Shown in pieces: positions 2,316-56,764 of a DNA stretch of 64,000 nucleotides. Below the pieces are notes generated by a model. That model was not told where the DNA came from. It did not search any database and saw only the letters and a list, made by a program, of their open reading frames with translations. The first letter of the stretch is position 1. Each line of letters begins with the position of its first letter. The stretch lies in IMG/VR virus record IMGVR_UViG_3300028374_000796. One strand, written 5' to 3'. This DNA is from a virus. A program made the position numbers and the translations under genes.

Positions 2316-3395
2316 TTAATTATACTCAGTTGCTTCGCCACCACGTACCAGATAAGATTCTGATACGTTTTTCAAAATTACACGTCCCAGTCGCGGGTGC
2401 TGGCGTTCCTTGATAGGTTTAATTACTACACCTTCACGGATATGAAGTTCATCCCCTGTAACTTGTTCTTGACCATCAGTGATATCCTCCAATACTTCTT
2501 CGGAGAAGGGACCTCTATAGAGAACAGGAACTCCAGGAATATCATACGTTTCCAGAAAAGCGTCTAAGTCTTCTACGTTCAAATAATGACCATCGCTTTC
2601 GTATCCAATATGAACATCGAAAACTGCAAGCCCGATCTCAGAGGAGTTTCCGCCGTATGAGAGGTCCTGGATACCATAAACTTCGCCAAGAATAAAGACC
2701 GGTTTTCCGTAGAACTCTACAGCTTGTTCTAATTTCTTGGGAAGACCCTGCTGTCGGGCAGCTTTCAGATACAGGTTATCTTTGTTTGCAGTAGAGTTAG
2801 GCTTGAATACCAGACCTTTAGAACCTAATCCTTTAGAGGCGACCACTAGGGGACCATACTCGGGATCCTGATCTTCTTCAAGAAGAAAACCTGCTTGAAA
2901 ATTTGTACCGTGAATTTTTTCTGTAATACAAACTTCTTCTCCGTCTTCCAGTACCTCTGGAAACCGTTTGATATTTTCAAGATCGTATTTCATGGTTTTG
3001 GCAGGTCCCAAGGCATATACCTCACCACCCATATCCAAAGGAATCTTCGGGACGTATTTTTCGATTCCCAGTTCTTCGGCCACATCCTGACCTTCCTCCC
3101 ATTCGGATCTGGCTGGGTAGCAAAGTCCCTGTGAAAGAACACCACGTAATCGAGCAGCCTTAACTCTATTGCCCTTAGATCCAGCTAATTTCCCTTCCAA
3201 ACCCATTTCTTTCAAAATAGGATTAGGGACAATAGATCCTTCTGGAAAATAGGCAACAAGATCCCCATCCTTGAATTGGTCTTTTCCGACAATAGACTTG
3301 AAATTGGTACCAACGATTTGAGCAATTTCAAGTCGGTCAGCATTGGGATGATTTTCAATACGAACTTTAACTACTTCTACTACAAATTCTGCCAT
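2316..3395 (-). CDS. RNA ligase, DRB0094-like (N-terminal OB fold plus nucleotidyltransferase)
   Basis: N-terminal HPNADRLE...GK...F..GDLV.YFPEGS; adenylation motif EKIHGTN; motif IV EGVVIK; motif V ILKNVS. Confidence 0.9.
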   Translation of the reverse strand: MAEFVVEVVKVRIENHPNADRLEIAQIVGTNFKSIVGKDQFKDGDLVAYFPEGSIVPNPILKEMGLEGKLAGSKGNRVKAARLRGVLSQGLCYPARSEWEEGQDVAEELGIEKYVPKIPLDMGGEVYALGPAKTMKYDLENIKRFPEVLEDGEEVCITEKIHGTNFQAGFLLEEDQDPEYGPLVVASKGLGSKGLVFKPNSTANKDNLYLKAARQQGLPKKLEQAVEFYGKPVFILGEVYGIQDLSYGGNSSEIGLAVFDVHIGYESDGHYLNVEDLDAFLETYDIPGVPVLYRGPFSEEVLEDITDGQEQVTGDELHIREGVVIKPIKERQHPRLGRVILKNVSESYLVRGGEATEYN

Positions 3396-4281: not shown

Positions 4282-6240
4282 TCAACTTTTCTCCATCATA
4301 GCAAAAAGCTCATCTTCTCCAATGATGGGAGTCTCATACTTATGAGCTTTTTTAGCCTTGGATGAAGTAGAAGTCTTATCATTACATACTAAATAGGTCA
4401 AGCTCTGTGAGACACTTTTCTTCACATCCCCACCATTATCCTTGATCATCTTCTCGATGACCTTACGAGGCTTGTCCAGCTTTCCAGTAATACAAAAAGA
4501 CATACCTTTCAAAGGACCTGCATTGGAAACGATGCTCACATAGTTTAGCAAATCTTCAATCATGTCTTCCCGATCTTTTAATCCTTGAACCAGTGAAGAG
4601 GCTTTCCCTTCCCCAACTCCTCGGGCGGCAGAAATTTGAAGTACCGAAGAAGTTCGGATTTGGTCCAATGTATCCTGACCCGATTTCATGACCTTCTTAA
4701 TGGTACTATTTGAACAGATTGGAATATTGAGTCCTCCCAAAAACTGATCCAAAGTGACCTCAGTTCTGGAATGCAAAAGGTCCAATAGCTTATTGGCAGT
4801 TTTCAACCCTACAATAGCTCCTCCCGTATTTTGAAGATTAGCAATGTCATCAGGATCTAATCGGTAGAGATCTGCAATCGTAGTAACCAAACCTTCTTCT
4901 ACCAGAGCGTTTAAGACGAACTCTCCCCAGTCCAAAAGGTCAAGGGAAGCTACCCATGCCTTTAGAGTGCCGGATACCCTAGAAGGGCATTCAGGAGACT
5001 CACATGCGAGATATTTACCGTCTACTACCAACGTAGAAGAACAGGACGGACAGTGTGTAGGGATATCAAGGATCCCTTCCGAATTTTTCTTAATGACTTC
5101 TTGAACTCTGGGGATCACGTCATTAGCCCTTTTTACCAGAATATCATCTCCAATATTCAACCCTAATTGTTGGATATAAGAAACATTGTACAAAGAAGCT
5201 CTTTGCACTTCAGCGCCTACCAACGTTACCAGGTCAAAAACAGCGACAGGGGTTACTCTTCCCGTATTACCCACTTGCCAGATTACTTCTTGGAGAGTAG
5301 ATGGTGCCACTTCTGCGCTAAATTTAAGAGCGACAGATCCGTGTGGACGTCGGTTTCGATCCCCTGCCCGATTAAAAACCTTTTGGTCGTGATATCGAAT
5401 GACCAGACCATCAATTTCATAGAACAATTCATCCCTGTGATGGTCTTCATAGGCGACATAGACCTCTCCAATTTCTTCCATAGACAAAGGACCTCCATGT
5501 CCTGGAGTCATTAGATCACAAGAATCAATGAAGATAAACTTTTCGGTTTGATCTTCAAAGTTGTAACCGTCAATGAAAGCTTCGTAGACATAGACCGAAA
5601 GATATTCGCACCTTTTTGCTTTTTCACGAGACTCTACTCTGGCCAGACCTGATGCAGCATTTCGGGGATTAGAATAATCTTCAAAATGAACATCAAACCA
5701 GTCGTGCGTTAGGACGATCTCTCCCCGAAAAGTGCCGGTAATGGGTTTAGACTGTGGATTAGGGGGTTCAATATGACGGGGAACTCCACGCATCAAAACT
5801 ACGTTGGCTATGATATCTTCTCCAAGGTGGCCGTCTCCCCTAGTAACCGCAGAAACCAATTTACCTTTTTCATATTGAAGAGCAATAGAAATTCCATCCA
5901 TTTTCTCGGACCAGAAAAGGACTTTTTCTTCGGAAAGATCTGAGGCTTGTGATCTTAGAGCAGGGCCGCTCGATTCCAACCATTTGCTCATATCCTCTAG
6001 TGAGTTAGCCTTGTTTAGCGAACCCATAGGAATAACATGAGGAACTTTTTTCCACTTGGTCTTAGTGTCTGCTTGCGCTCCGACATTAGCGAGGATTGAG
6101 GAATCGGGATGAAGGTCTCGGAGTTCATCTTCTAGAGCATCGAAAGCTTGGTCACTGATCTCAGGATCATCGTTATAGTACGCTTCTCGATGGTACTCAA
6201 TCAGTTGCTCTAGCTCTTCAATTCTATTTTGATCACTCAT
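4282..6240 (-). CDS. ligA: NAD-dependent DNA ligase
   Basis: YY..DP.ISD..FD domain Ia; EKMDG adenylation motif; IDGLV; QVGNTGRVTPVA OB fold; Cys4 zinc finger; HhH repeats; C-terminal BRCT (FCITGKL). Confidence 0.97.
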   Translation of the reverse strand: MSDQNRIEELEQLIEYHREAYYNDDPEISDQAFDALEDELRDLHPDSSILANVGAQADTKTKWKKVPHVIPMGSLNKANSLEDMSKWLESSGPALRSQASDLSEEKVLFWSEKMDGISIALQYEKGKLVSAVTRGDGHLGEDIIANVVLMRGVPRHIEPPNPQSKPITGTFRGEIVLTHDWFDVHFEDYSNPRNAASGLARVESREKAKRCEYLSVYVYEAFIDGYNFEDQTEKFIFIDSCDLMTPGHGGPLSMEEIGEVYVAYEDHHRDELFYEIDGLVIRYHDQKVFNRAGDRNRRPHGSVALKFSAEVAPSTLQEVIWQVGNTGRVTPVAVFDLVTLVGAEVQRASLYNVSYIQQLGLNIGDDILVKRANDVIPRVQEVIKKNSEGILDIPTHCPSCSSTLVVDGKYLACESPECPSRVSGTLKAWVASLDLLDWGEFVLNALVEEGLVTTIADLYRLDPDDIANLQNTGGAIVGLKTANKLLDLLHSRTEVTLDQFLGGLNIPICSNSTIKKVMKSGQDTLDQIRTSSVLQISAARGVGEGKASSLVQGLKDREDMIEDLLNYVSIVSNAGPLKGMSFCITGKLDKPRKVIEKMIKDNGGDVKKSVSQSLTYLVCNDKTSTSSKAKKAHKYETPIIGEDELFAMMEKS

Positions 6241-6283: not shown

Positions 6284-6312
6284 TATATACCCTGGTTCTA
6301 GGAAAATTACAA
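6284..6312 (-). promoter_or_regulatory. Promoter, CCAGGG family (TTGTAA-N17-TATATA), upstream of ligA
   Basis: Minus strand reads TTGTAA ttttcctagaaccaggg TATATA; six other copies with the same geometry. Confidence 0.75.
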
Positions 6313-15572: not shown

Positions 15573-15908
15573 TCATAATTCCTCAAAAGGAGGAAATTTT
15601 TGATTAACTGCATCTCTAACTAATTCTTCAAAAGCCTCCATGTCCTGTCGGTCCCAGGCCCTTCGGAGGCTCGCATTAAATGGAGGGTTTTCAAAAAGGT
15701 CTAAAAGTCTATCAAAATCTGCTCGGGTGATCTTCTCCTGCTGGTTAGAATTAGAGGGAGAAAATAAAACAAATCCTCTTTTGGGAGAAAAATTAACCGC
15801 CCAATCTTCACTAGACTTAAAAAAAGATTTGGCAAATTTTAAAACGATCGGATATGCTTTGTCCTGTGACAAGGACTGCGTATATCGCATTTTTTTAGAT
15901 TCGGACAT
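15573..15908 (-). CDS. Hypothetical protein
   Basis: 111-aa ORF in a co-oriented cluster. Confidence 0.7.
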   Translation of the reverse strand: MSESKKMRYTQSLSQDKAYPIVLKFAKSFFKSSEDWAVNFSPKRGFVLFSPSNSNQQEKITRADFDRLLDLFENPPFNASLRRAWDRQDMEAFEELVRDAVNQKFPPFEEL

Positions 15909-26625: not shown

Positions 26626-27603
26626 TCACCCGGCCATCAGTTCCATAGCATGAGGTTTCAGGTCTTTTAGAAGGTCCTGCAATTTGTCTATATAGTAATA
26701 GACTTTTCGGGGGGAATCCACACCAATGGCTTCATAAAGAGGTAGGGTCTGGACTCGTCCCTTGTCTCTATTGAAAAACGTGATTTCTCTTCTCGCGAGA
26801 TCTGTTCTACTTTTAAAATCTGGCTCTTCCTTGATCGCTTTCCAGATTCGTAGGATTTTTTCATCGCCGCGACTTTGAATATATTTATCGATTTTTCTCA
26901 GAAAATCTCTAATTTCCGCACTTCCTTCCGACAGACTCATCCAAGAAGACGCTTCGGATCTGGTCATTGGGTTCATTTCTAAAAGGTTTAGAACAATATT
27001 AGAATCTCCTCCTTCAGGATTTGAATCGAAATTATCGGAAGTATCAAAAGGAACCTGGTGATAACCTCCATCTCCCATAGGTCCTCGCTGCCTTTGCTGA
27101 AATTTACGATCTTTATTATGTGCTTTATCGTTTACTTGCTTTCTCAAAAGCTTTTCCATATCAAGTGCATCTTTCCCTTCTTCTCTCCAGTCTTTAATCT
27201 GTTGCGCTAAATTTCCCTGAGACCATTGTCCTTTACTAAAGTCAAGATTCCCCGTATCCTGGTCTACGTCAAAGGAATCCAGATTTTGACCTAACAGAAT
27301 ATCCTGAAAAACTGCGGACATTACTTGCTCTTCATATTTGGTGTCCCATTTCATTTCAATGGCGATCCTTTTTACGGTATTAATAAAGATGGATCCCCAA
27401 GGAAGGTCCGGAGGATTCTCCAGTCCTGCACTTCTAAAATGTTGCGCCACCGCTATATTAATGGTGTTTTTATCATAGTCCGCAGTTTTCATGCGACCTA
27501 AGTGAGCGATCCTCATAAGAGCATAAGCCACTTTCACAGGCTCGTCGATAGTCTGTGAAACTTGAGAAGTAGCTTGTCGAAGCATCTGTTTAATTTTTAG
27601 CAT
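26626..27603 (-). CDS. Hypothetical protein, possibly a very divergent sigma-like factor with an N-terminal leader
   Basis: 325-aa ORF; leader ends RIAHLGRMKTA; C-terminal HTH-like SRTDLARRE...IGVDSPRKVYYYIDKL. Confidence 0.7.
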   Translation of the reverse strand: MLKIKQMLRQATSQVSQTIDEPVKVAYALMRIAHLGRMKTADYDKNTINIAVAQHFRSAGLENPPDLPWGSIFINTVKRIAIEMKWDTKYEEQVMSAVFQDILLGQNLDSFDVDQDTGNLDFSKGQWSQGNLAQQIKDWREEGKDALDMEKLLRKQVNDKAHNKDRKFQQRQRGPMGDGGYHQVPFDTSDNFDSNPEGGDSNIVLNLLEMNPMTRSEASSWMSLSEGSAEIRDFLRKIDKYIQSRGDEKILRIWKAIKEEPDFKSRTDLARREITFFNRDKGRVQTLPLYEAIGVDSPRKVYYYIDKLQDLLKDLKPHAMELMAG

Positions 27604-27710
27604 TATCTATTCCTATTGAGAGCGTAAAGCGATTGACAGGCAACCCTCTATCTGTTAGTAAAGGATGACGAAGTGTTTTCATACCTACCCTAATAGAAAA
27701 GGATTACCAA

Positions 27711-42977: not shown

Positions 42978-43382
42978 TCAAAGATCTATGATGTCCCTCC
43001 AGTCTTCGCCGGTTTCAGATCCCCACTGCTTACGGGGTGCAAGCAGGTGACCGTTCATGTTGTAGTCTGCTCCACAACATGTACAGGTGTTGGTGAATTT
43101 CACCAGAGCAACCTTAGACCCGCATTCTTCACACAAACCAACTTTCGGGACCTTCGTTACCCGGACCTGACGAGTAACCCCTTTATTGACGATAGGCTGA
43201 CTATGTGAGTTGGAAACGCATTTCTCATAGGCAGCTTTGGCAGCATCGGGAAGGCTGTCTACATCGACATTTCCGTTCTCATCGCAGCTAAAAGAGAACC
43301 CCCAACCCTCTTCCCCTTCCCAGTCGAAAGAGAGAGTATAGCTAATATGTTCAACTTTCTTTCGGTTTTGGATAATTTTGAT
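42978..43382 (-). CDS. Zinc-ribbon protein with an apparently non-AUG start (absent from the ORF track)
   Basis: My translation: IKIIQNRKKVEHISYTLSFDW...GFSFSCDENG...CEECGSKVALVKFTNTCTCCGADYNMNGHLLAPRKQWGSETGE; no in-frame ATG/GTG/TTG before the upstream TAA. Confidence 0.7.
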   Translation of the reverse strand: MKIIQNRKKVEHISYTLSFDWEGEEGWGFSFSCDENGNVDVDSLPDAAKAAYEKCVSNSHSQPIVNKGVTRQVRVTKVPKVGLCEECGSKVALVKFTNTCTCCGADYNMNGHLLAPRKQWGSETGEDWRDIIDL

Positions 43383-43421
43383 TCCTAGGGTGATAGAAAG
43401 TGATCCTTAACAACTTCACCC

Positions 43422-43601: not shown

Positions 43602-45902
43602 ATGGCTGTAAAGAATACCACACCATCCTCAGTATCATCCTCCAAAACAACCCTAAGTTCAAATTACGATTTGAAAACCCTTCTCTCATTCGAGACAAAA
43701 GAGGAAGGTAGGCACCTTCAAAAATTGATCGAAAAGAATCCAGGGCTGGTTCAACATAAATATTTTGGGGATGAACCTAATAATGCGGGAAATATCCATT
43801 TAAATGGAAAACCCGAAGCAAGTGCAGGGGAACGAATCACGAACGGATGTGATGCTAAAATTGAAGAAGCCATCTATAACGGACTGGCTGCTCAGTATGA
43901 CAACCCTTTTGATATTGGAGAAGCAGTTTTCGACGCCAATAAAACAGGGGTGTCCGTAGCATCTAGGCCAGTACACCTTCGATTGAAAGGAAAGTACGAT
44001 AAAAAAGCGAAGTCAGTGACGATGGATGTGCGGGATTATGGAATAGGAATTCCAGTCAAACGCATGTTGAAAACTATTCTTAATTCCAAAAGTGGAACCA
44101 AATCAAGCGATCCTCGTTATATTGGCAGGTATGGTCATGGAGGGTCTACTACTTTCTCACATTCAAATTTCTCGATGGTAGTAAGCCGTCATATTAATTC
44201 TAAAAAGGTGGGAGTAGCTTTTGTCAAGTATTGCGCCCCCGGAGATATGAATCCCATTACGGGAGAGGAACAACGAAGGAGCGGGACATATCTAACATTA
44301 GTGGACCCTAATACGGGAGAGCCTTTCGTGTTCAACGCTTTTGATACCAATGGCAATGAGATCTTCAAGCCCGGCACGCATATTCGACATTTTGAATATG
44401 AGATGGATCCGAGGGACCTTGTTTTTTACAGCAAACCCACCCGTCAAAAGTCTTCTCTTTATAAAACGATGAGGACGATGTTCCCTAACCCTCCAATTCC
44501 TTTTGCGGTTTTTGACGACCGCATGGGAGCAAAAGGGACTCAGCTTCATTATACGGTTTACGGATCCTTTCGTTCCCTTAGTAGTAATGTAAAAAAGAAG
44601 GTCGAATATGACAATTCCGCTACTGTTCCAGTTGGAAAGGGTAATATCAAACTCTACTGGTTTATTATCGACGAAGATTCCGTGCGTGATAATTATATCA
44701 ATAATTTCGTCAACTATGGGTATTCGGGTAACGTATTTTTGAGCGGTCAGACCATCGAAACATTGCCAGCACAGATCGTTAGAGATTCTGGGATTCCCTT
44801 TTTGGAAAAAGGAATCGTTCTCTTTGCAGATCTCGATGGTCTCGACGATCGGACCAAAGATCGCGTGATGACTGCGACCAGAGAAAGTCTAAATACTAAC
44901 TACCGAAATCTCATTCATGAACATCTGGTATCGCATCTCAAAGAAGATGATAGAGTGCAAGAAATCCATCAAGAAAGACGAAATAATCTAACTTCTACGC
45001 CTTCCAATCAGGATACCATCAAGCAGTTGAAGAAATATTTTGAGAACTACCTTACGGGTTCTGGAAATAGTAGAACTCCAAATCCTAATCCCAAACCTAA
45101 AGTTTCTCCTACCCCTATTGCGGTAGCAAATAGCTATATAAAGGTTATTTCCCCTAGACGGGCTTTGTATCCGGGCCAGAAATTTTCCATTAGGTTTCAG
45201 ACCGATATCGATAATTCAAGGTTCGATCAGAATTTCTTTGAAATTACTGCTAAGGACCCTCAGGTTCTTGAGGTATCCAACTGGTCGATCAGTGATAACC
45301 AGAATGCAACACAGGGCCATAAAACACTGGCAGGTCTACAGGTTAACCCCGGCGCACAGGTAGGGGATTTCTCCACCATTACTTTGAAAGTGAAGCTACC
45401 TAACCAACAAGAAGTGGAAGTGGAAATAGCTTGTGCCATCGTGGAAAAACCGGATCCTAAGAAAACCAGTCAAAAGGTTCCGGATTTCGATGTGAAATGG
45501 GTTAATAAGAATCAAACAGACCTGATTAGAAATCTGGACCTTTTTGACGAGGATGGAAATGTCATGGAAGATAAGGTAGGTCACGTCGAGAGAGGTGGAG
45601 ACGGTTCAATTACCGTTTACTTGGCGAGGTTCAACGAAGAAGTAGTTGCGGCGCTCAAAGCGATCGAAGATAATGGTACTGCTAAAACCCGATATGATCA
45701 TTACCAGGAGTTTTTCCTGTCAGGATATTTTGACTTTCAGGTAGCAGCAGCTGCATCTGCATTTCTTCTCAAAGATGACGGGCAGATTCAAACTCCAAGC
45801 CCCAAAGATACCCCAGATACCGAATTGGAAACCGTAATGAAAAGCGCTGCTAGGAGCGCAGTAGCTTACTGGAAAGTAAATCTTCTAAAAATTGCAAATT
45901 AA
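43602..45902 (+). CDS. GHKL (HSP90/MORC/sacsin-like) ATPase-domain protein, copy 2
   Basis: ERITNGCDA, VRDYGIG, IGRYGHGGS, GT; Ig-like C-terminal region. Confidence 0.8.
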   Translation: MAVKNTTPSSVSSSKTTLSSNYDLKTLLSFETKEEGRHLQKLIEKNPGLVQHKYFGDEPNNAGNIHLNGKPEASAGERITNGCDAKIEEAIYNGLAAQYDNPFDIGEAVFDANKTGVSVASRPVHLRLKGKYDKKAKSVTMDVRDYGIGIPVKRMLKTILNSKSGTKSSDPRYIGRYGHGGSTTFSHSNFSMVVSRHINSKKVGVAFVKYCAPGDMNPITGEEQRRSGTYLTLVDPNTGEPFVFNAFDTNGNEIFKPGTHIRHFEYEMDPRDLVFYSKPTRQKSSLYKTMRTMFPNPPIPFAVFDDRMGAKGTQLHYTVYGSFRSLSSNVKKKVEYDNSATVPVGKGNIKLYWFIIDEDSVRDNYINNFVNYGYSGNVFLSGQTIETLPAQIVRDSGIPFLEKGIVLFADLDGLDDRTKDRVMTATRESLNTNYRNLIHEHLVSHLKEDDRVQEIHQERRNNLTSTPSNQDTIKQLKKYFENYLTGSGNSRTPNPNPKPKVSPTPIAVANSYIKVISPRRALYPGQKFSIRFQTDIDNSRFDQNFFEITAKDPQVLEVSNWSISDNQNATQGHKTLAGLQVNPGAQVGDFSTITLKVKLPNQQEVEVEIACAIVEKPDPKKTSQKVPDFDVKWVNKNQTDLIRNLDLFDEDGNVMEDKVGHVERGGDGSITVYLARFNEEVVAALKAIEDNGTAKTRYDHYQEFFLSGYFDFQVAAAASAFLLKDDGQIQTPSPKDTPDTELETVMKSAARSAVAYWKVNLLKIAN

Positions 45903-45904
45903 AT

Positions 45905-45933
45905 TTGTAATTTAGGAAAGACCAGGGTATATA
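45905..45933 (+). promoter_or_regulatory. Promoter, CCAGGG family, driving the candidate ncRNA
   Basis: TTGTAA tttaggaaagaccaggg TATATA. Confidence 0.75.
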
Positions 45934-45935
45934 GG

Positions 45936-46328
45936 GTGAGTCGAGGGGAAACCCTCTTAATACTGGCAAGGGATATTGGCCATAGGAATAGATAAAGGAA
46001 CTCTGAACATAGTGGAGTTCGCCAATGGCATCGACCCCAAACAGGCTAAAGCCCAAGGAGTCTGGTATGAAGTGCGCGGGATTGAAAGATCCCCTTTGGT
46101 CGACCCAATATGGACGTTAAAATAACGGACCATTTCAAAGTCTTGAAAGGAAAAGGTCAAAATCCTTTTGAGAGTGGTAACCGGATAATACCGAAGCAGC
46201 ACGCTATTTTTACTTGATATACAAAACACCTCTCCTGCGAGGTGCAGAAAAATATGATTTTATGCAGGCACCTTCAAGATAGAGAAAAAAGGAAGATCCT
46301 TAGCAGATAGTTAAGGATCTTCTTTTTT
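45936..46328 (+). ncRNA. Candidate ~390-nt structured RNA of unknown family
   Basis: Bounded by a promoter and a terminator; many stems (GAGGG-GAAA-CCCTC; ATTGGC/GCCAAT; GAACTC/GAGTTC; GGGAT-TGAAAG-ATCCC; TTTCAA/TTGAAA; AAAAGG/CCTTTT; CACCTC/GAGGTG); no convincing plus-strand ORF. Confidence 0.55.
46292..46328 (+). terminator. Intrinsic terminator
   Basis: GAAGATCCTTAG / TTAAGGATCTTC followed by TTTTTT. Confidence 0.85.
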
Positions 46329-46378
46329 GTTCTTATAAATAGATCCAGTGTTAACGTTCCTAAGAGGCACTTACTATT

Positions 46379-47323
46379 ATGGTTAAAACAAACTCAAAAT
46401 CTTTTCGTGATTTTCAAATGAAGGTTGATTCCTTTGAGGACCAAATCGAAGAATTGATTGAAGGCATCGATTTGACCTCGGATAAAGTCAAAGACCTGAA
46501 CTTTGACTTTGCCAATCTTATTCGAGAACTCAAAGAGGTCAAACATAGCGATGATGACTATAATATTGGAGAGTCGATTATGGACCATATGAAAATGGAC
46601 CTCCAAAATGTTAATGACCTGACCCAAGGTTGGGACAAACAAAAAAGAAATATCCTTCGCCTTCTTTCTTTCCTCCACGATATCGCCAAACCCGAGACAT
46701 TTGAAATGCGAGGGGATAAGGCAACGTTCTATGGGCATCCTGATAGGGGCTATGAAGTATCTAAAGTTATCCTTGATCAGTTTACTGAGGAAACCGAAGA
46801 AATGCGAGAGTATGTAGCCAAGTTGGTGAAATATCATCACCATATTTATCAGTTGGCGCATTCAAAGAAACAACTCAAAGACCCTAACCAGCTTTCCTAC
46901 TTGAAAAAGTTCATTCAAGAAGGTGCCGAAACTCTTCAAGACCTAGCTCTTTTCGCAAAAGCAGACTCTATGACTCCGCAAGGTCTGGCAGAAGTCAAAG
47001 AATCCATTAAAATAATCACTGAGGATATCAAACGATATCGAGAACAAGAAAAAAGAGAGAATGAAAAAGAACGTAAAATGGAACAATTGGCAGATGAACG
47101 GGTAAGGGATGAAAGAAAAGTCCGTTCTATTTTAGAAGAAAATTCTTCTCTTTCAGCGGAAGGGGTTCAAGCAGTATTAGATCTAATACCGAAAGTGTCT
47201 GATATTAACCGTTACTTAGGGAAAAACAAAGAGTACAACGCCATCAAAGCCCTCCAGAGCTATTTGCAAGGAAAGTCTAACGTAGCACAGGTAGTTGCCT
47301 TAAGAACCCTGTATGGTCGTTGA
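46379..47323 (+). CDS. HD-domain phosphohydrolase (resembles the HD region of multifunctional CCA/poly(A)-type enzymes)
   Basis: H..DH, FLHDIAKPET, FYGH, YHH, KAD. Confidence 0.82.
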   Translation: MVKTNSKSFRDFQMKVDSFEDQIEELIEGIDLTSDKVKDLNFDFANLIRELKEVKHSDDDYNIGESIMDHMKMDLQNVNDLTQGWDKQKRNILRLLSFLHDIAKPETFEMRGDKATFYGHPDRGYEVSKVILDQFTEETEEMREYVAKLVKYHHHIYQLAHSKKQLKDPNQLSYLKKFIQEGAETLQDLALFAKADSMTPQGLAEVKESIKIITEDIKRYREQEKRENEKERKMEQLADERVRDERKVRSILEENSSLSAEGVQAVLDLIPKVSDINRYLGKNKEYNAIKALQSYLQGKSNVAQVVALRTLYGR

Positions 47324-47463
47324 CCTTTAGTCTTATCTATGTTAACGTTTTGTAGGCAATCAATAAAAGAGGTAGTTATAAAATGAGTAAAAAAGAATTG
47401 GATGTTTGGAGTGCCCAGGGTATATTAAGCTGAAGGGTCCTTTTTTATTTGTAAGGAATTGAG

Positions 47464-47859
47464 ATGTCGATATCGAAAAAAGAAGAAGAAAGACTGATTA
47501 GGGATATCAAAAATTATTTCAAGGATCAGTGGCCAAAAACACAATGGAAATTAATAGATAATAGTCTTCACGAAATGTCCCCTTACCTTCAATTTAAATC
47601 CAAAACAGGCATCACCATACTTTTGATTTATAAAGGATCCCTTGATAAATGTTGGGGTTCAATTGCTAATTTCCAATCTACATTGTCTGATAATGACATA
47701 CCTTTATCGAATAACGTTAAAGCTACCGACTGGGAACCTGCGATAGACAATGCTCTTGAGCAAGCTGTCAATGTTTTAGAGAGAGACACCGAAAGAAGCT
47801 TGAAAGCTCTAAAATCCTTACTGGAATCGGATCATATTCGACAGGCTAGAAGACGTTGA
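47464..47859 (+). CDS. Small paralog-family protein (L..xWP..W family)
   Basis: IKNYFKDQWPKTQW...DWEPAIDNAL. Confidence 0.75.
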   Translation: MSISKKEEERLIRDIKNYFKDQWPKTQWKLIDNSLHEMSPYLQFKSKTGITILLIYKGSLDKCWGSIANFQSTLSDNDIPLSNNVKATDWEPAIDNALEQAVNVLERDTERSLKALKSLLESDHIRQARRR

Positions 47860-56311: not shown

Positions 56312-56764
56312 ATGCTGTCATTAAATGAGAATAGGGACAGGTTAAAAATGATGATGCTATCCGAAAAAGAGAAGAGAGAGATATTAGATACATTGTCTGA
56401 GGTATCTAACAATTCTATTGTAAGGAGGTGGTGGTGGAAACCCACTACTACCTTGTGCAATAATAATGATGATGCGGAGGGATGGGCCGTCCAAGAACAT
56501 AGGGAAGATGAAGAGGGAGCTAGTAATGTGAAGTACCACCTTATCCTTACGTTTGGTATTGACCCTATGGAGGGAGGCTATTGTGTCCGATCCTATTTAA
56601 GACCCGAAGGTAGGGATGATCTGACTCGACAGCTTTCGTATAGAAAATTTAATGGAAATATGAATTGGCATCAAAGGCTCGACGATTTCTTTTCCCATAC
56701 TACGGATAATGTAGAAGAAGCCTTTGAAGATTGTTATATTGCTCTCCACTTGTTATATAGTTAA
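56312..56764 (+). CDS. Hypothetical protein
   Basis: 150-aa ORF. Confidence 0.6.
   Translation: MLSLNENRDRLKMMMLSEKEKREILDTLSEVSNNSIVRRWWWKPTTTLCNNNDDAEGWAVQEHREDEEGASNVKYHLILTFGIDPMEGGYCVRSYLRPEGRDDLTRQLSYRKFNGNMNWHQRLDDFFSHTTDNVEEAFEDCYIALHLLYS

Follow-up and report, generated by a model that had tools for sequence, protein, structure and literature searches.

We describe a candidate RNA gene in a large uncultured phage. On the plus strand of the window (the 64,000-nucleotide stretch of DNA analysed here, part of a 177-kb contig), an independent unit at ~45938-46334 would give rise to a folded RNA of ~395 nt, and it is probably a stand-alone gene whose RNA acts through its fold. The predicted RNA belongs to a previously undescribed family, whose three members so far all come from a single lineage of large uncultured phages. 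The original prediction had offered two readings, a stand-alone large phage non-coding RNA or a switch controlling readthrough into the gene for an HD hydrolase downstream. Comparison of the three sequences supports the former: the putative gene has a conserved promoter and terminator, no conserved long protein frame and a fold backed by compensatory changes, the attributes by which a stand-alone structured RNA gene would be recognized. The switch is disfavoured, since the gene after the RNA in the distant homologue is not HD, distant HD genes lie on contigs in which no copy of the RNA was found, and we found no segment that would compete with the terminator stem.

A promoter-to-terminator unit between two phage genes

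The window encodes an NAD-dependent DNA ligase, a topoisomerase IB, clamp-loader subunits, a ribonucleotide reductase, an RNA ligase and an amidase-type endolysin. Between a GHKL-like gene and an HD-domain gene lies a gap that holds a promoter-like site, ~395 nt with short frames only, and then a strong terminator. The features of this locus are as follows.

43602-45902, plus strand: GHKL-like gene, with its stop codon at 45902
45905-45933, plus strand: predicted promoter of the RNA, with the -35 element TTGTAA at 45905-45910, a 17-nt spacer, CCAGGG at 45922-45927 and the -10 element TATATA at 45928-45933
~45938-46334, plus strand: predicted RNA transcription unit, ~395 nt, bracketed by promoter and terminator
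46286-46328, with a T-run to 46334, plus strand: intrinsic terminator with a 19-pair stem and a 5-nt loop
46379-47323, plus strand: HD-domain (HD phosphohydrolase) gene

The promoter is one of a family. TTGTAA-N17-TATATA, in which CCAGGG invariably precedes the -10 element, is found seven times in the window where 0.57 copies are expected, which bears out the family promoter that had been placed ahead of the RNA. The copies lie at 6284, 43422 (-), 45905 (+), 57694, 60149 and 61059, with a weaker one at 56731. Elsewhere the motif stands ~40-45 nt upstream of a ribosome-binding site and start codon; the copy at 45905 is the exception and is followed by ~395 nt without a conserved frame instead of a short leader. 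From its position, the transcript would start near 45938-45941. Two of the copies, 43422 (-) and 45905 (+), lie on either side of the GHKL gene and point outward.

DNA similarity searches in near and distant modes returned no close relative of the window among 50,697 phage records, tblastn with the HD and GHKL proteins gave no match in the phage records, and protein-guided searches for the locus in viral contigs found none. Among 5.8 billion proteins, seven relatives of the HD protein and five of the GHKL protein were recovered.

The RNA core is more conserved than the neighbouring genes

The close homologue is represented by contigs from one study (L001, L002 and L013-L017), which keep the order GHKL, gap, HD and hold one identical copy of the gap. 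Compared with L001, the promoter at 45905-45933 is identical, and the first hairpin and the terminator are also conserved, while the 3' part of the unit is variable. Conservation along the unit is uneven. The ~90 nt after the first hairpin are 54% identical and carry indels of 10, 3, 3 and 2 nt, whereas a ~160-nt core is 94-96% identical (94% at 46055-46154). Flanking genes reach ~80-85% (74-93% per 100 nt) and other intergenic DNA 40-68%, so the core is under stronger constraint than the adjacent proteins.

The distant homologue lies at ~4337-4695 of L012, inside a 448-nt gap two genes downstream of a GHKL gene whose protein is 51% identical to that of the window. Its blocks follow the same order as in the window: AGGAGTCT, ATG, a GAAA-capped hairpin, GTCGAC, a bulged hairpin, TTTCAA, AGTGG, CGGA and CGAAG. 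This copy was first spotted by eye in the gap, and nhmmer with the window RNA had missed it; a covariance model built from the window and L001 only, with L012 left out, located it at 4440-4581 with 36 bits (E ~1e-8). The same model matched none of 25 other loci, and no copy of the RNA was found on three contigs with more distant GHKL or HD contexts (L026, L027 and L028). One weak model match, at 15662-15813, was rejected as it had none of the conserved blocks and fell in coding DNA.

Pattern scans extended the search. Six exact or degenerate patterns gave 0 matches in viral contigs. Two patterns gave 0 matches in metagenome contigs; of two run on genome contigs, one gave 0 matches and the other 8, about the number expected by chance, none of them fitting the model. 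The early patterns were too strict, and one would miss even L001. A third lineage has a GHKL protein 65% identical to that of the window and retains the promoter: its three independent contigs L009 (6334-6364), L010 and L011 all end inside the family motif, ~10 nt past the GHKL stop. This common end is probably an assembly break at the repeated motif, and the sequence beyond it is possibly a fourth variant of the RNA.

Compensatory changes point to a shared fold

The predicted structure consists of a variable 5' arm, the conserved core and a variable 3' domain, with these elements.

45940-45944 with 46100-46104, plus strand: possible long-range helix (GTCGA/TCGAC), its 5' strand overlapping P1 by two bases
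45943-45956, plus strand: P1, a GAAA-loop hairpin of 5 bp, shared by the window and L001 and lacking in L012
45979-45986 with 46022-46029, plus strand: P2, outer helix of the P2-P3 arm
45987-45997, plus strand: purine-rich internal loop of the P2-P3 arm, 11 nt
45998-46005 with 46013-46020, plus strand: P3
46044-46053, plus strand: P4, a small GC hairpin; all three copies have a hairpin here, differing in sequence and loop size
46078-46093, plus strand: Hb, a 6-bp hairpin (7 bp in L012) with a GAAA loop
46099-46104, plus strand: invariant GTCGAC palindrome, 3' partner of the possible long-range helix
46110-46133, plus strand: Hc2, a hairpin in two tiers, with a conserved bulge of a single A and a GA bulge
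46141-46173, plus strand: Hc3, a hairpin of 11 bp closed by an 11-nt loop; the L012 version is shorter and interrupted
46173-46206, plus strand: 3' end of the core, with the invariant blocks AGTGG, CGGA and CGAAG
46227-46273, plus strand: variable 3' domain, with alternative CACCTC / GAGGTG / GCACCT pairings around a CCTGC/GCAGG stem

Five helices (P2, P3, Hb, Hc2 and the base of Hc3) are common to the three sequences and carry the case for the fold. Over these helices, both partners have changed in 12 of 31 pairs, compared with 0-2 in slid controls, a count drawn from three distinct sequences and hence two independent comparisons, too few for a formal covariation statistic. The core helices contribute 17 pairs, 98% paired; both bases differ in 6 of them, against 0-1 with the partners slid by 1-3 columns. 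This alignment was guided by the model and so fitted to its structure, and the base pairs of Hc3 were picked after the L012 sequence had been viewed. The P2-P3 arm, in a plain MAFFT alignment, contributes 14 pairs, with 88% of cells paired and 6 both-side changes against 0-2 in slid controls. Most of its unpaired cells belong to P3 of L001, because the 5' strand there is shifted by an insertion, and one position of P2 reads U-A, G-C and U-G among the three sequences. Two pairs have changed on both sides in each of Hb (100% paired), Hc2 (7 pairs, 100% paired) and the base of Hc3, whose top is not alignable. The small CGG/CCG hairpin at the 3' end of the core is lost in L012.

Minimum-energy folding of the window and L001 without constraints already gave all five helices. 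Many of their pairs, as read from the helices, are G-U and could hence form on the plus strand only. The search for homologues and covariation that had been suggested as a check on the RNA thus yielded, in the form in which we ran it, five helices with compensatory changes over three sequences. The structure proposed at the outset, with at least eight stems including two GAAA-capped hairpins, is likewise recovered: the two hairpins are P1 and Hb, and the minimum-energy fold has more than eight stems. That fold also contains a long-range pairing between the AGGAG region and the 3' domain, which we rejected because it is missing from the fold of L001.

Folding energy gives a weaker signal. The whole unit folds with z = -4.1 on the plus strand against -2.6 on the minus strand, but once the terminator is removed the window copy falls to z = -1.4, no better than many shuffles, while L001 gives z = -3.4. 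Much of the signal of the unit comes from the terminator, so folding energy alone cannot carry the claim. At the level of the alignment, z is -6.9 on the plus strand and -4.5 on the minus strand. The comparative evidence is stronger than the single-sequence folding energy.

Two long-range helices are tentative. The GTCGA and TCGAC segments, put forward earlier as a possible long-range pair, are both in place and would join the 5' end to GUCGAC by 5 bp in the window, 4 bp in L001 and 7 bp in L012; forcing this helix in constrained folding costs 5-13 kcal/mol, and we leave it tentative for that reason. The second would pair CUUUG (CUUCG in L012) with CGAAG. The two helices cross, so that a pseudoknot would result if both are real.

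The core carries an invariant, putative ribosome-binding motif

Within the most conserved part of the RNA lies a putative start signal that had gone unremarked in the original prediction.

46056-46069, plus strand: putative ribosome-binding motif AGGAGTCT, three variable bases and ATG, invariant in the window, L001 and L012
46067-46120, plus strand: mini-frame of 17 codons and a stop; read directly from the sequences, 17 codons in L001 and 23 in L012

The sole substitution between the window and L001 within the mini-frame is silent. Only ~5-6 of the 17 residues match in L012, where the conserved nucleotide blocks (the GAAA-loop hairpin, CCCCTT and GTCGAC) fall in different frames by way of small compensating indels, which argues for selection on the RNA and not on the peptide. 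Third-position changes at the shared end of the peptide, silent in appearance, each have a compensating partner in Hc2. Across the window, AGGAG-N5-8-ATG is found at 11 places, 6 of which open frames of fewer than 30 codons. We considered a type I toxin messenger of the hok kind and rejected it, as the 17-residue product is charged and not hydrophobic and no antisense promoter covering the mini-frame was found in 45000-47500.

Other frames of the region do not behave as proteins. The 49-codon plus-strand frame at 45976-46125 (ILAIGIDKG...WTLK), which had been named as the frame whose conservation would count against an RNA, is broken in L001 by the indels of 10, 3, 3 and 2 nt and has no matching frame there. 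Its 49-residue translation (45976-46122) did give multi-stretch HMMER matches in giant proteins of 4190, 1360 and 440 residues (best E = 3.7e-12, 7 stretches); as the frame is broken in L001, we gave these matches no weight. A 35-codon frame at 46110-46217 shows 3 replacements, 1 stop and 2 silent changes in L001, and L012 has no start codon at its place. Minus-strand frames of the region are broken in L001, and searches with the minus-strand 90-codon frame found no relatives.

The RNA does not always adjoin the HD gene

The context of the L012 copy separates the RNA from the HD gene. There the RNA is preceded by its own promoter motif, TCTGCTATAAA, and followed by a terminator-like hairpin of its own; past this hairpin the motif recurs ahead of the next gene. 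That gene is not HD; it is a homologue (27% identity, E = 7e-11) of the window gene at 47464-47859. In the window this gene lies after HD, so that the window lineage, unlike L012, has HD between the RNA and that gene, and no HD gene was found anywhere on the L012 contig. Conversely, no copy of the RNA was found on the contigs of more distant HD homologues (42-58% identical), and in one of these, L003 (2226-4903), the HD gene comes directly after an RNA ligase gene and a gene of 214 residues. Together these contexts indicate that the link between RNA and HD is not conserved, and the L012 arrangement, with promoter motif and terminator-like hairpin but no adjoining HD gene, favours a stand-alone RNA over a switch dedicated to HD.

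The promoter-like motif of L012, found at 4323-4333 before the RNA and at 4709-4719 before the next gene, recurs in place of the window family. Transcription from it would begin with GGTGAG, bases similar to those at the start of transcripts from the window promoters.

In the window and L001, 44-50 nt separate the terminator from the start of HD, and no promoter was found in this interval; HD would therefore be transcribed by readthrough in these two lineages, at a level set by the terminator. The terminator itself was correctly foreseen, but its stem has 19 pairs and not the 12 bp first given, and all 3 stem substitutions in L001 keep pairing. Just upstream, the CACCTC, GAGGTG and GCACCT segments occur where they had been reported, and L001 retains both pairings of GAGGTG through wobble changes and one compensatory change. 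None of these alternative pairings overlaps the terminator stem, no segment competing with the 19-pair stem was found, and we recognized no clear counterpart of the pairings in L012.

Relation to known RNA families

Searches with Rfam 15 (4227 models, among them tmRNA, RNase P, SRP, 6S, group I and II introns, ROOL, GOLLD, OLE, raiA, HEARO and all riboswitches) returned, at gathering score over the whole window, only a tRNA elsewhere. None of the three copies has a gathering-score match, in agreement with the earlier view that the RNA is of no recognizable family. With E relaxed to 10, the window region and both homologues gave terminator and hairpin look-alikes only, with no family common to the three, and ARAGORN found no tmRNA.

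To our knowledge, few large folded phage RNAs have been described, namely ROOL, GOLLD and the packaging RNA of phi29. ROOL and GOLLD are large ornate RNAs of roughly 600-800 nt that are often found in phages and prophages. Like them, the RNA described here appears to be stand-alone, spans several hundred nucleotides with multiple helices and GNRA loops, and resides in phage DNA; unlike them, it shows no similarity to the ROOL and GOLLD models of Rfam, measures ~350-415 nt, is represented by three sequences and carries a ribosome-binding look-alike. ROOL and GOLLD form RNA-only assemblies (PMC12286853). Staphylococcus RNAIII (with hld) and SgrS (with SgrT) offer another likeness, as structured RNAs of regulatory size that have a promoter and a terminator to themselves and contain a very short frame preceded by a good ribosome-binding site. 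Production of the hld and SgrT peptides is established and their sequences are conserved, whereas the putative mini-frame peptide differs between copies, and complementarity within the window yielded no base-pairing target.

Leaders that control a terminator, such as the T-box, share with the RNA a place upstream of a gene, a terminator at the end, alternative 3' pairings and a T-box-like stretch containing UGG. This stretch, AGAGTGGTAACCGG at 46169-46184, resembles the T-box consensus, and its GTGG part is invariant in all three homologues. It has no match to RF00230, however, lies ~100 nt before the terminator without overlapping it, and belongs to an RNA whose link to the downstream gene is not conserved. 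Were both tentative long-range helices real, they would cross as P3 and P7 do in the core of a group I intron, with a hairpin in the place of P8. Against an intron, the RNA has no exons, lies between complete genes with its own promoter, has no match to Rfam group I models and leaves ~58 nt between the hairpin and the second strand. Read directly against sponges of the CsrB/RsmZ type, the RNA shows five conserved GGA-containing blocks, most of them in stems, bulges or junctions, and no repeated hairpin unit.

Discussion

We favour a stand-alone RNA in which a variable 5' arm (P2-P3) is joined to a conserved core of ~160 nt made up of the GAAA hairpin, the invariant GUCGAC, the bulged two-tier hairpin and a long hairpin. 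Such an RNA would most likely work in trans, as a scaffold or decoy, its fold presenting a protein or the small ribosomal subunit with purine-rich segments that are conserved and unpaired, the ribosome-binding look-alike among them. Taken by itself, the scaffold-or-decoy mechanism is a tentative proposal that we would not expect to hold in this form. Complementarity searches for an RNA target within the window gave matches at about chance level and no target, and no partner gene was found that always adjoins the RNA. In the window lineage the terminator may also limit the transcription that reaches HD, which would be a side effect of the position of HD and not a conserved role.

The conserved AGGAG-N6-ATG suggests ribosome loading and is a poor fit to a purely non-coding RNA. 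As the main alternative, the RNA could be a dual-function molecule or the messenger of a small gene, in which this is a real start, the function lies in a product of 17-23 residues or in the act of translation through Hb, GUCGAC and Hc2, and the folds control or respond to it. The motif, its spacing and the ATG have stayed fixed in three copies while spacer bases and following codons vary, and the frame is open in each of them with nothing but a silent change between the window and L001. Yet most residues differ in L012, the conserved blocks shift frame, and the third-position changes are answered by partners in Hc2; such motifs, often opening short frames, recur across the window, and a gene of 17 codons leaves ~330 nt of conserved, covarying flanks unexplained. 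On this evidence we judge a translated function unlikely. Less probable still is a leader acting in cis, be it a riboswitch, an attenuator or a T-box-like sensor, by which the amount of readthrough from the terminator into HD would be set. It would account for the closeness of HD to the terminator with no promoter between them in the window and L001, for the retention of both GAGGTG pairings in L001 and for the T-box-like stretch, and the nearest annotated relatives of the HD protein, the HD domains of CCA-adding enzymes, would suit such a sensor. It does not account for L012, where the RNA precedes a different gene with its own promoter motif, or for the more distant HD homologues in contexts without the RNA. 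The most conserved part of the RNA, moreover, lies 80-230 nt upstream of the terminator, the 19-pair stem has no competitor that we could find, and no copy matches an Rfam riboswitch or T-box.

The region might also have no function at the RNA level, being a 3' tail of the GHKL transcript with its terminator, decayed coding DNA, or a transcribed DNA-level site for protein binding or replication. No terminator was found between the GHKL stop at 45902 and the region, and the window copy, taken minus its terminator, does not clearly exceed its shuffles in stability. But the five helices contain G-U pairs confined to one strand along with compensatory changes, the core exceeds the adjacent genes in conservation, and a dedicated promoter is present in all lineages, including the third, where it directly follows GHKL; the cumulative GC skew turns near 30-32 kb, away from the RNA locus. 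We regard this explanation as very improbable.

A more speculative idea, and the one to which we give the least credence, is that the RNA senses tRNA 3' ends or engages the ribosome, with the UGG-containing T-box-like stretch or the ribosome-binding look-alike capturing a tRNA acceptor end or the 30S subunit, and couples this to tRNA repair by the phage. The functions concerned would be the HD phosphohydrolase that adjoins the RNA in two lineages and the RNA ligases, one in the window and one ahead of HD in L003. Beyond its close phage homologues, the HD protein is nearest to the HD domains of CCA-adding enzymes; together with the RNA ligase of L003 and that of the window (2316-3395), it looks like part of a split tRNA-repair toolkit. 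The tie between this theme and the RNA is only positional and holds in two of three lineages. If true, RNA repair in a large phage would be under RNA-based control of a new kind.

Large phages hold many unexplained accessory regions. The stand-alone RNA that we favour would add to them a new-looking family with its own promoter and terminator, a core that surpasses its neighbour genes in conservation and a ribosome-binding look-alike within the folded core. Its present reach is narrow, at three sequences from one lineage. If expressed, it would offer a compact subject of ~350-415 nt for structural work, and it could help to explain how large phages use RNA over host translation or RNA repair.

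Two further observations concern the surroundings of the locus. The stretch at 43004-43394, which holds a minus-strand frame, meets an alignment gap of ~300 nt against L013 and is missing from this close relative. A 14-nt same-sense repeat, with ~0.2 expected by chance, links 45982-45995, in the region of the variable P2-P3 internal loop, to 27603-27616 (-), the ribosome-binding region of the gene at 26626-27603 (-); this repeat is not retained in L001.
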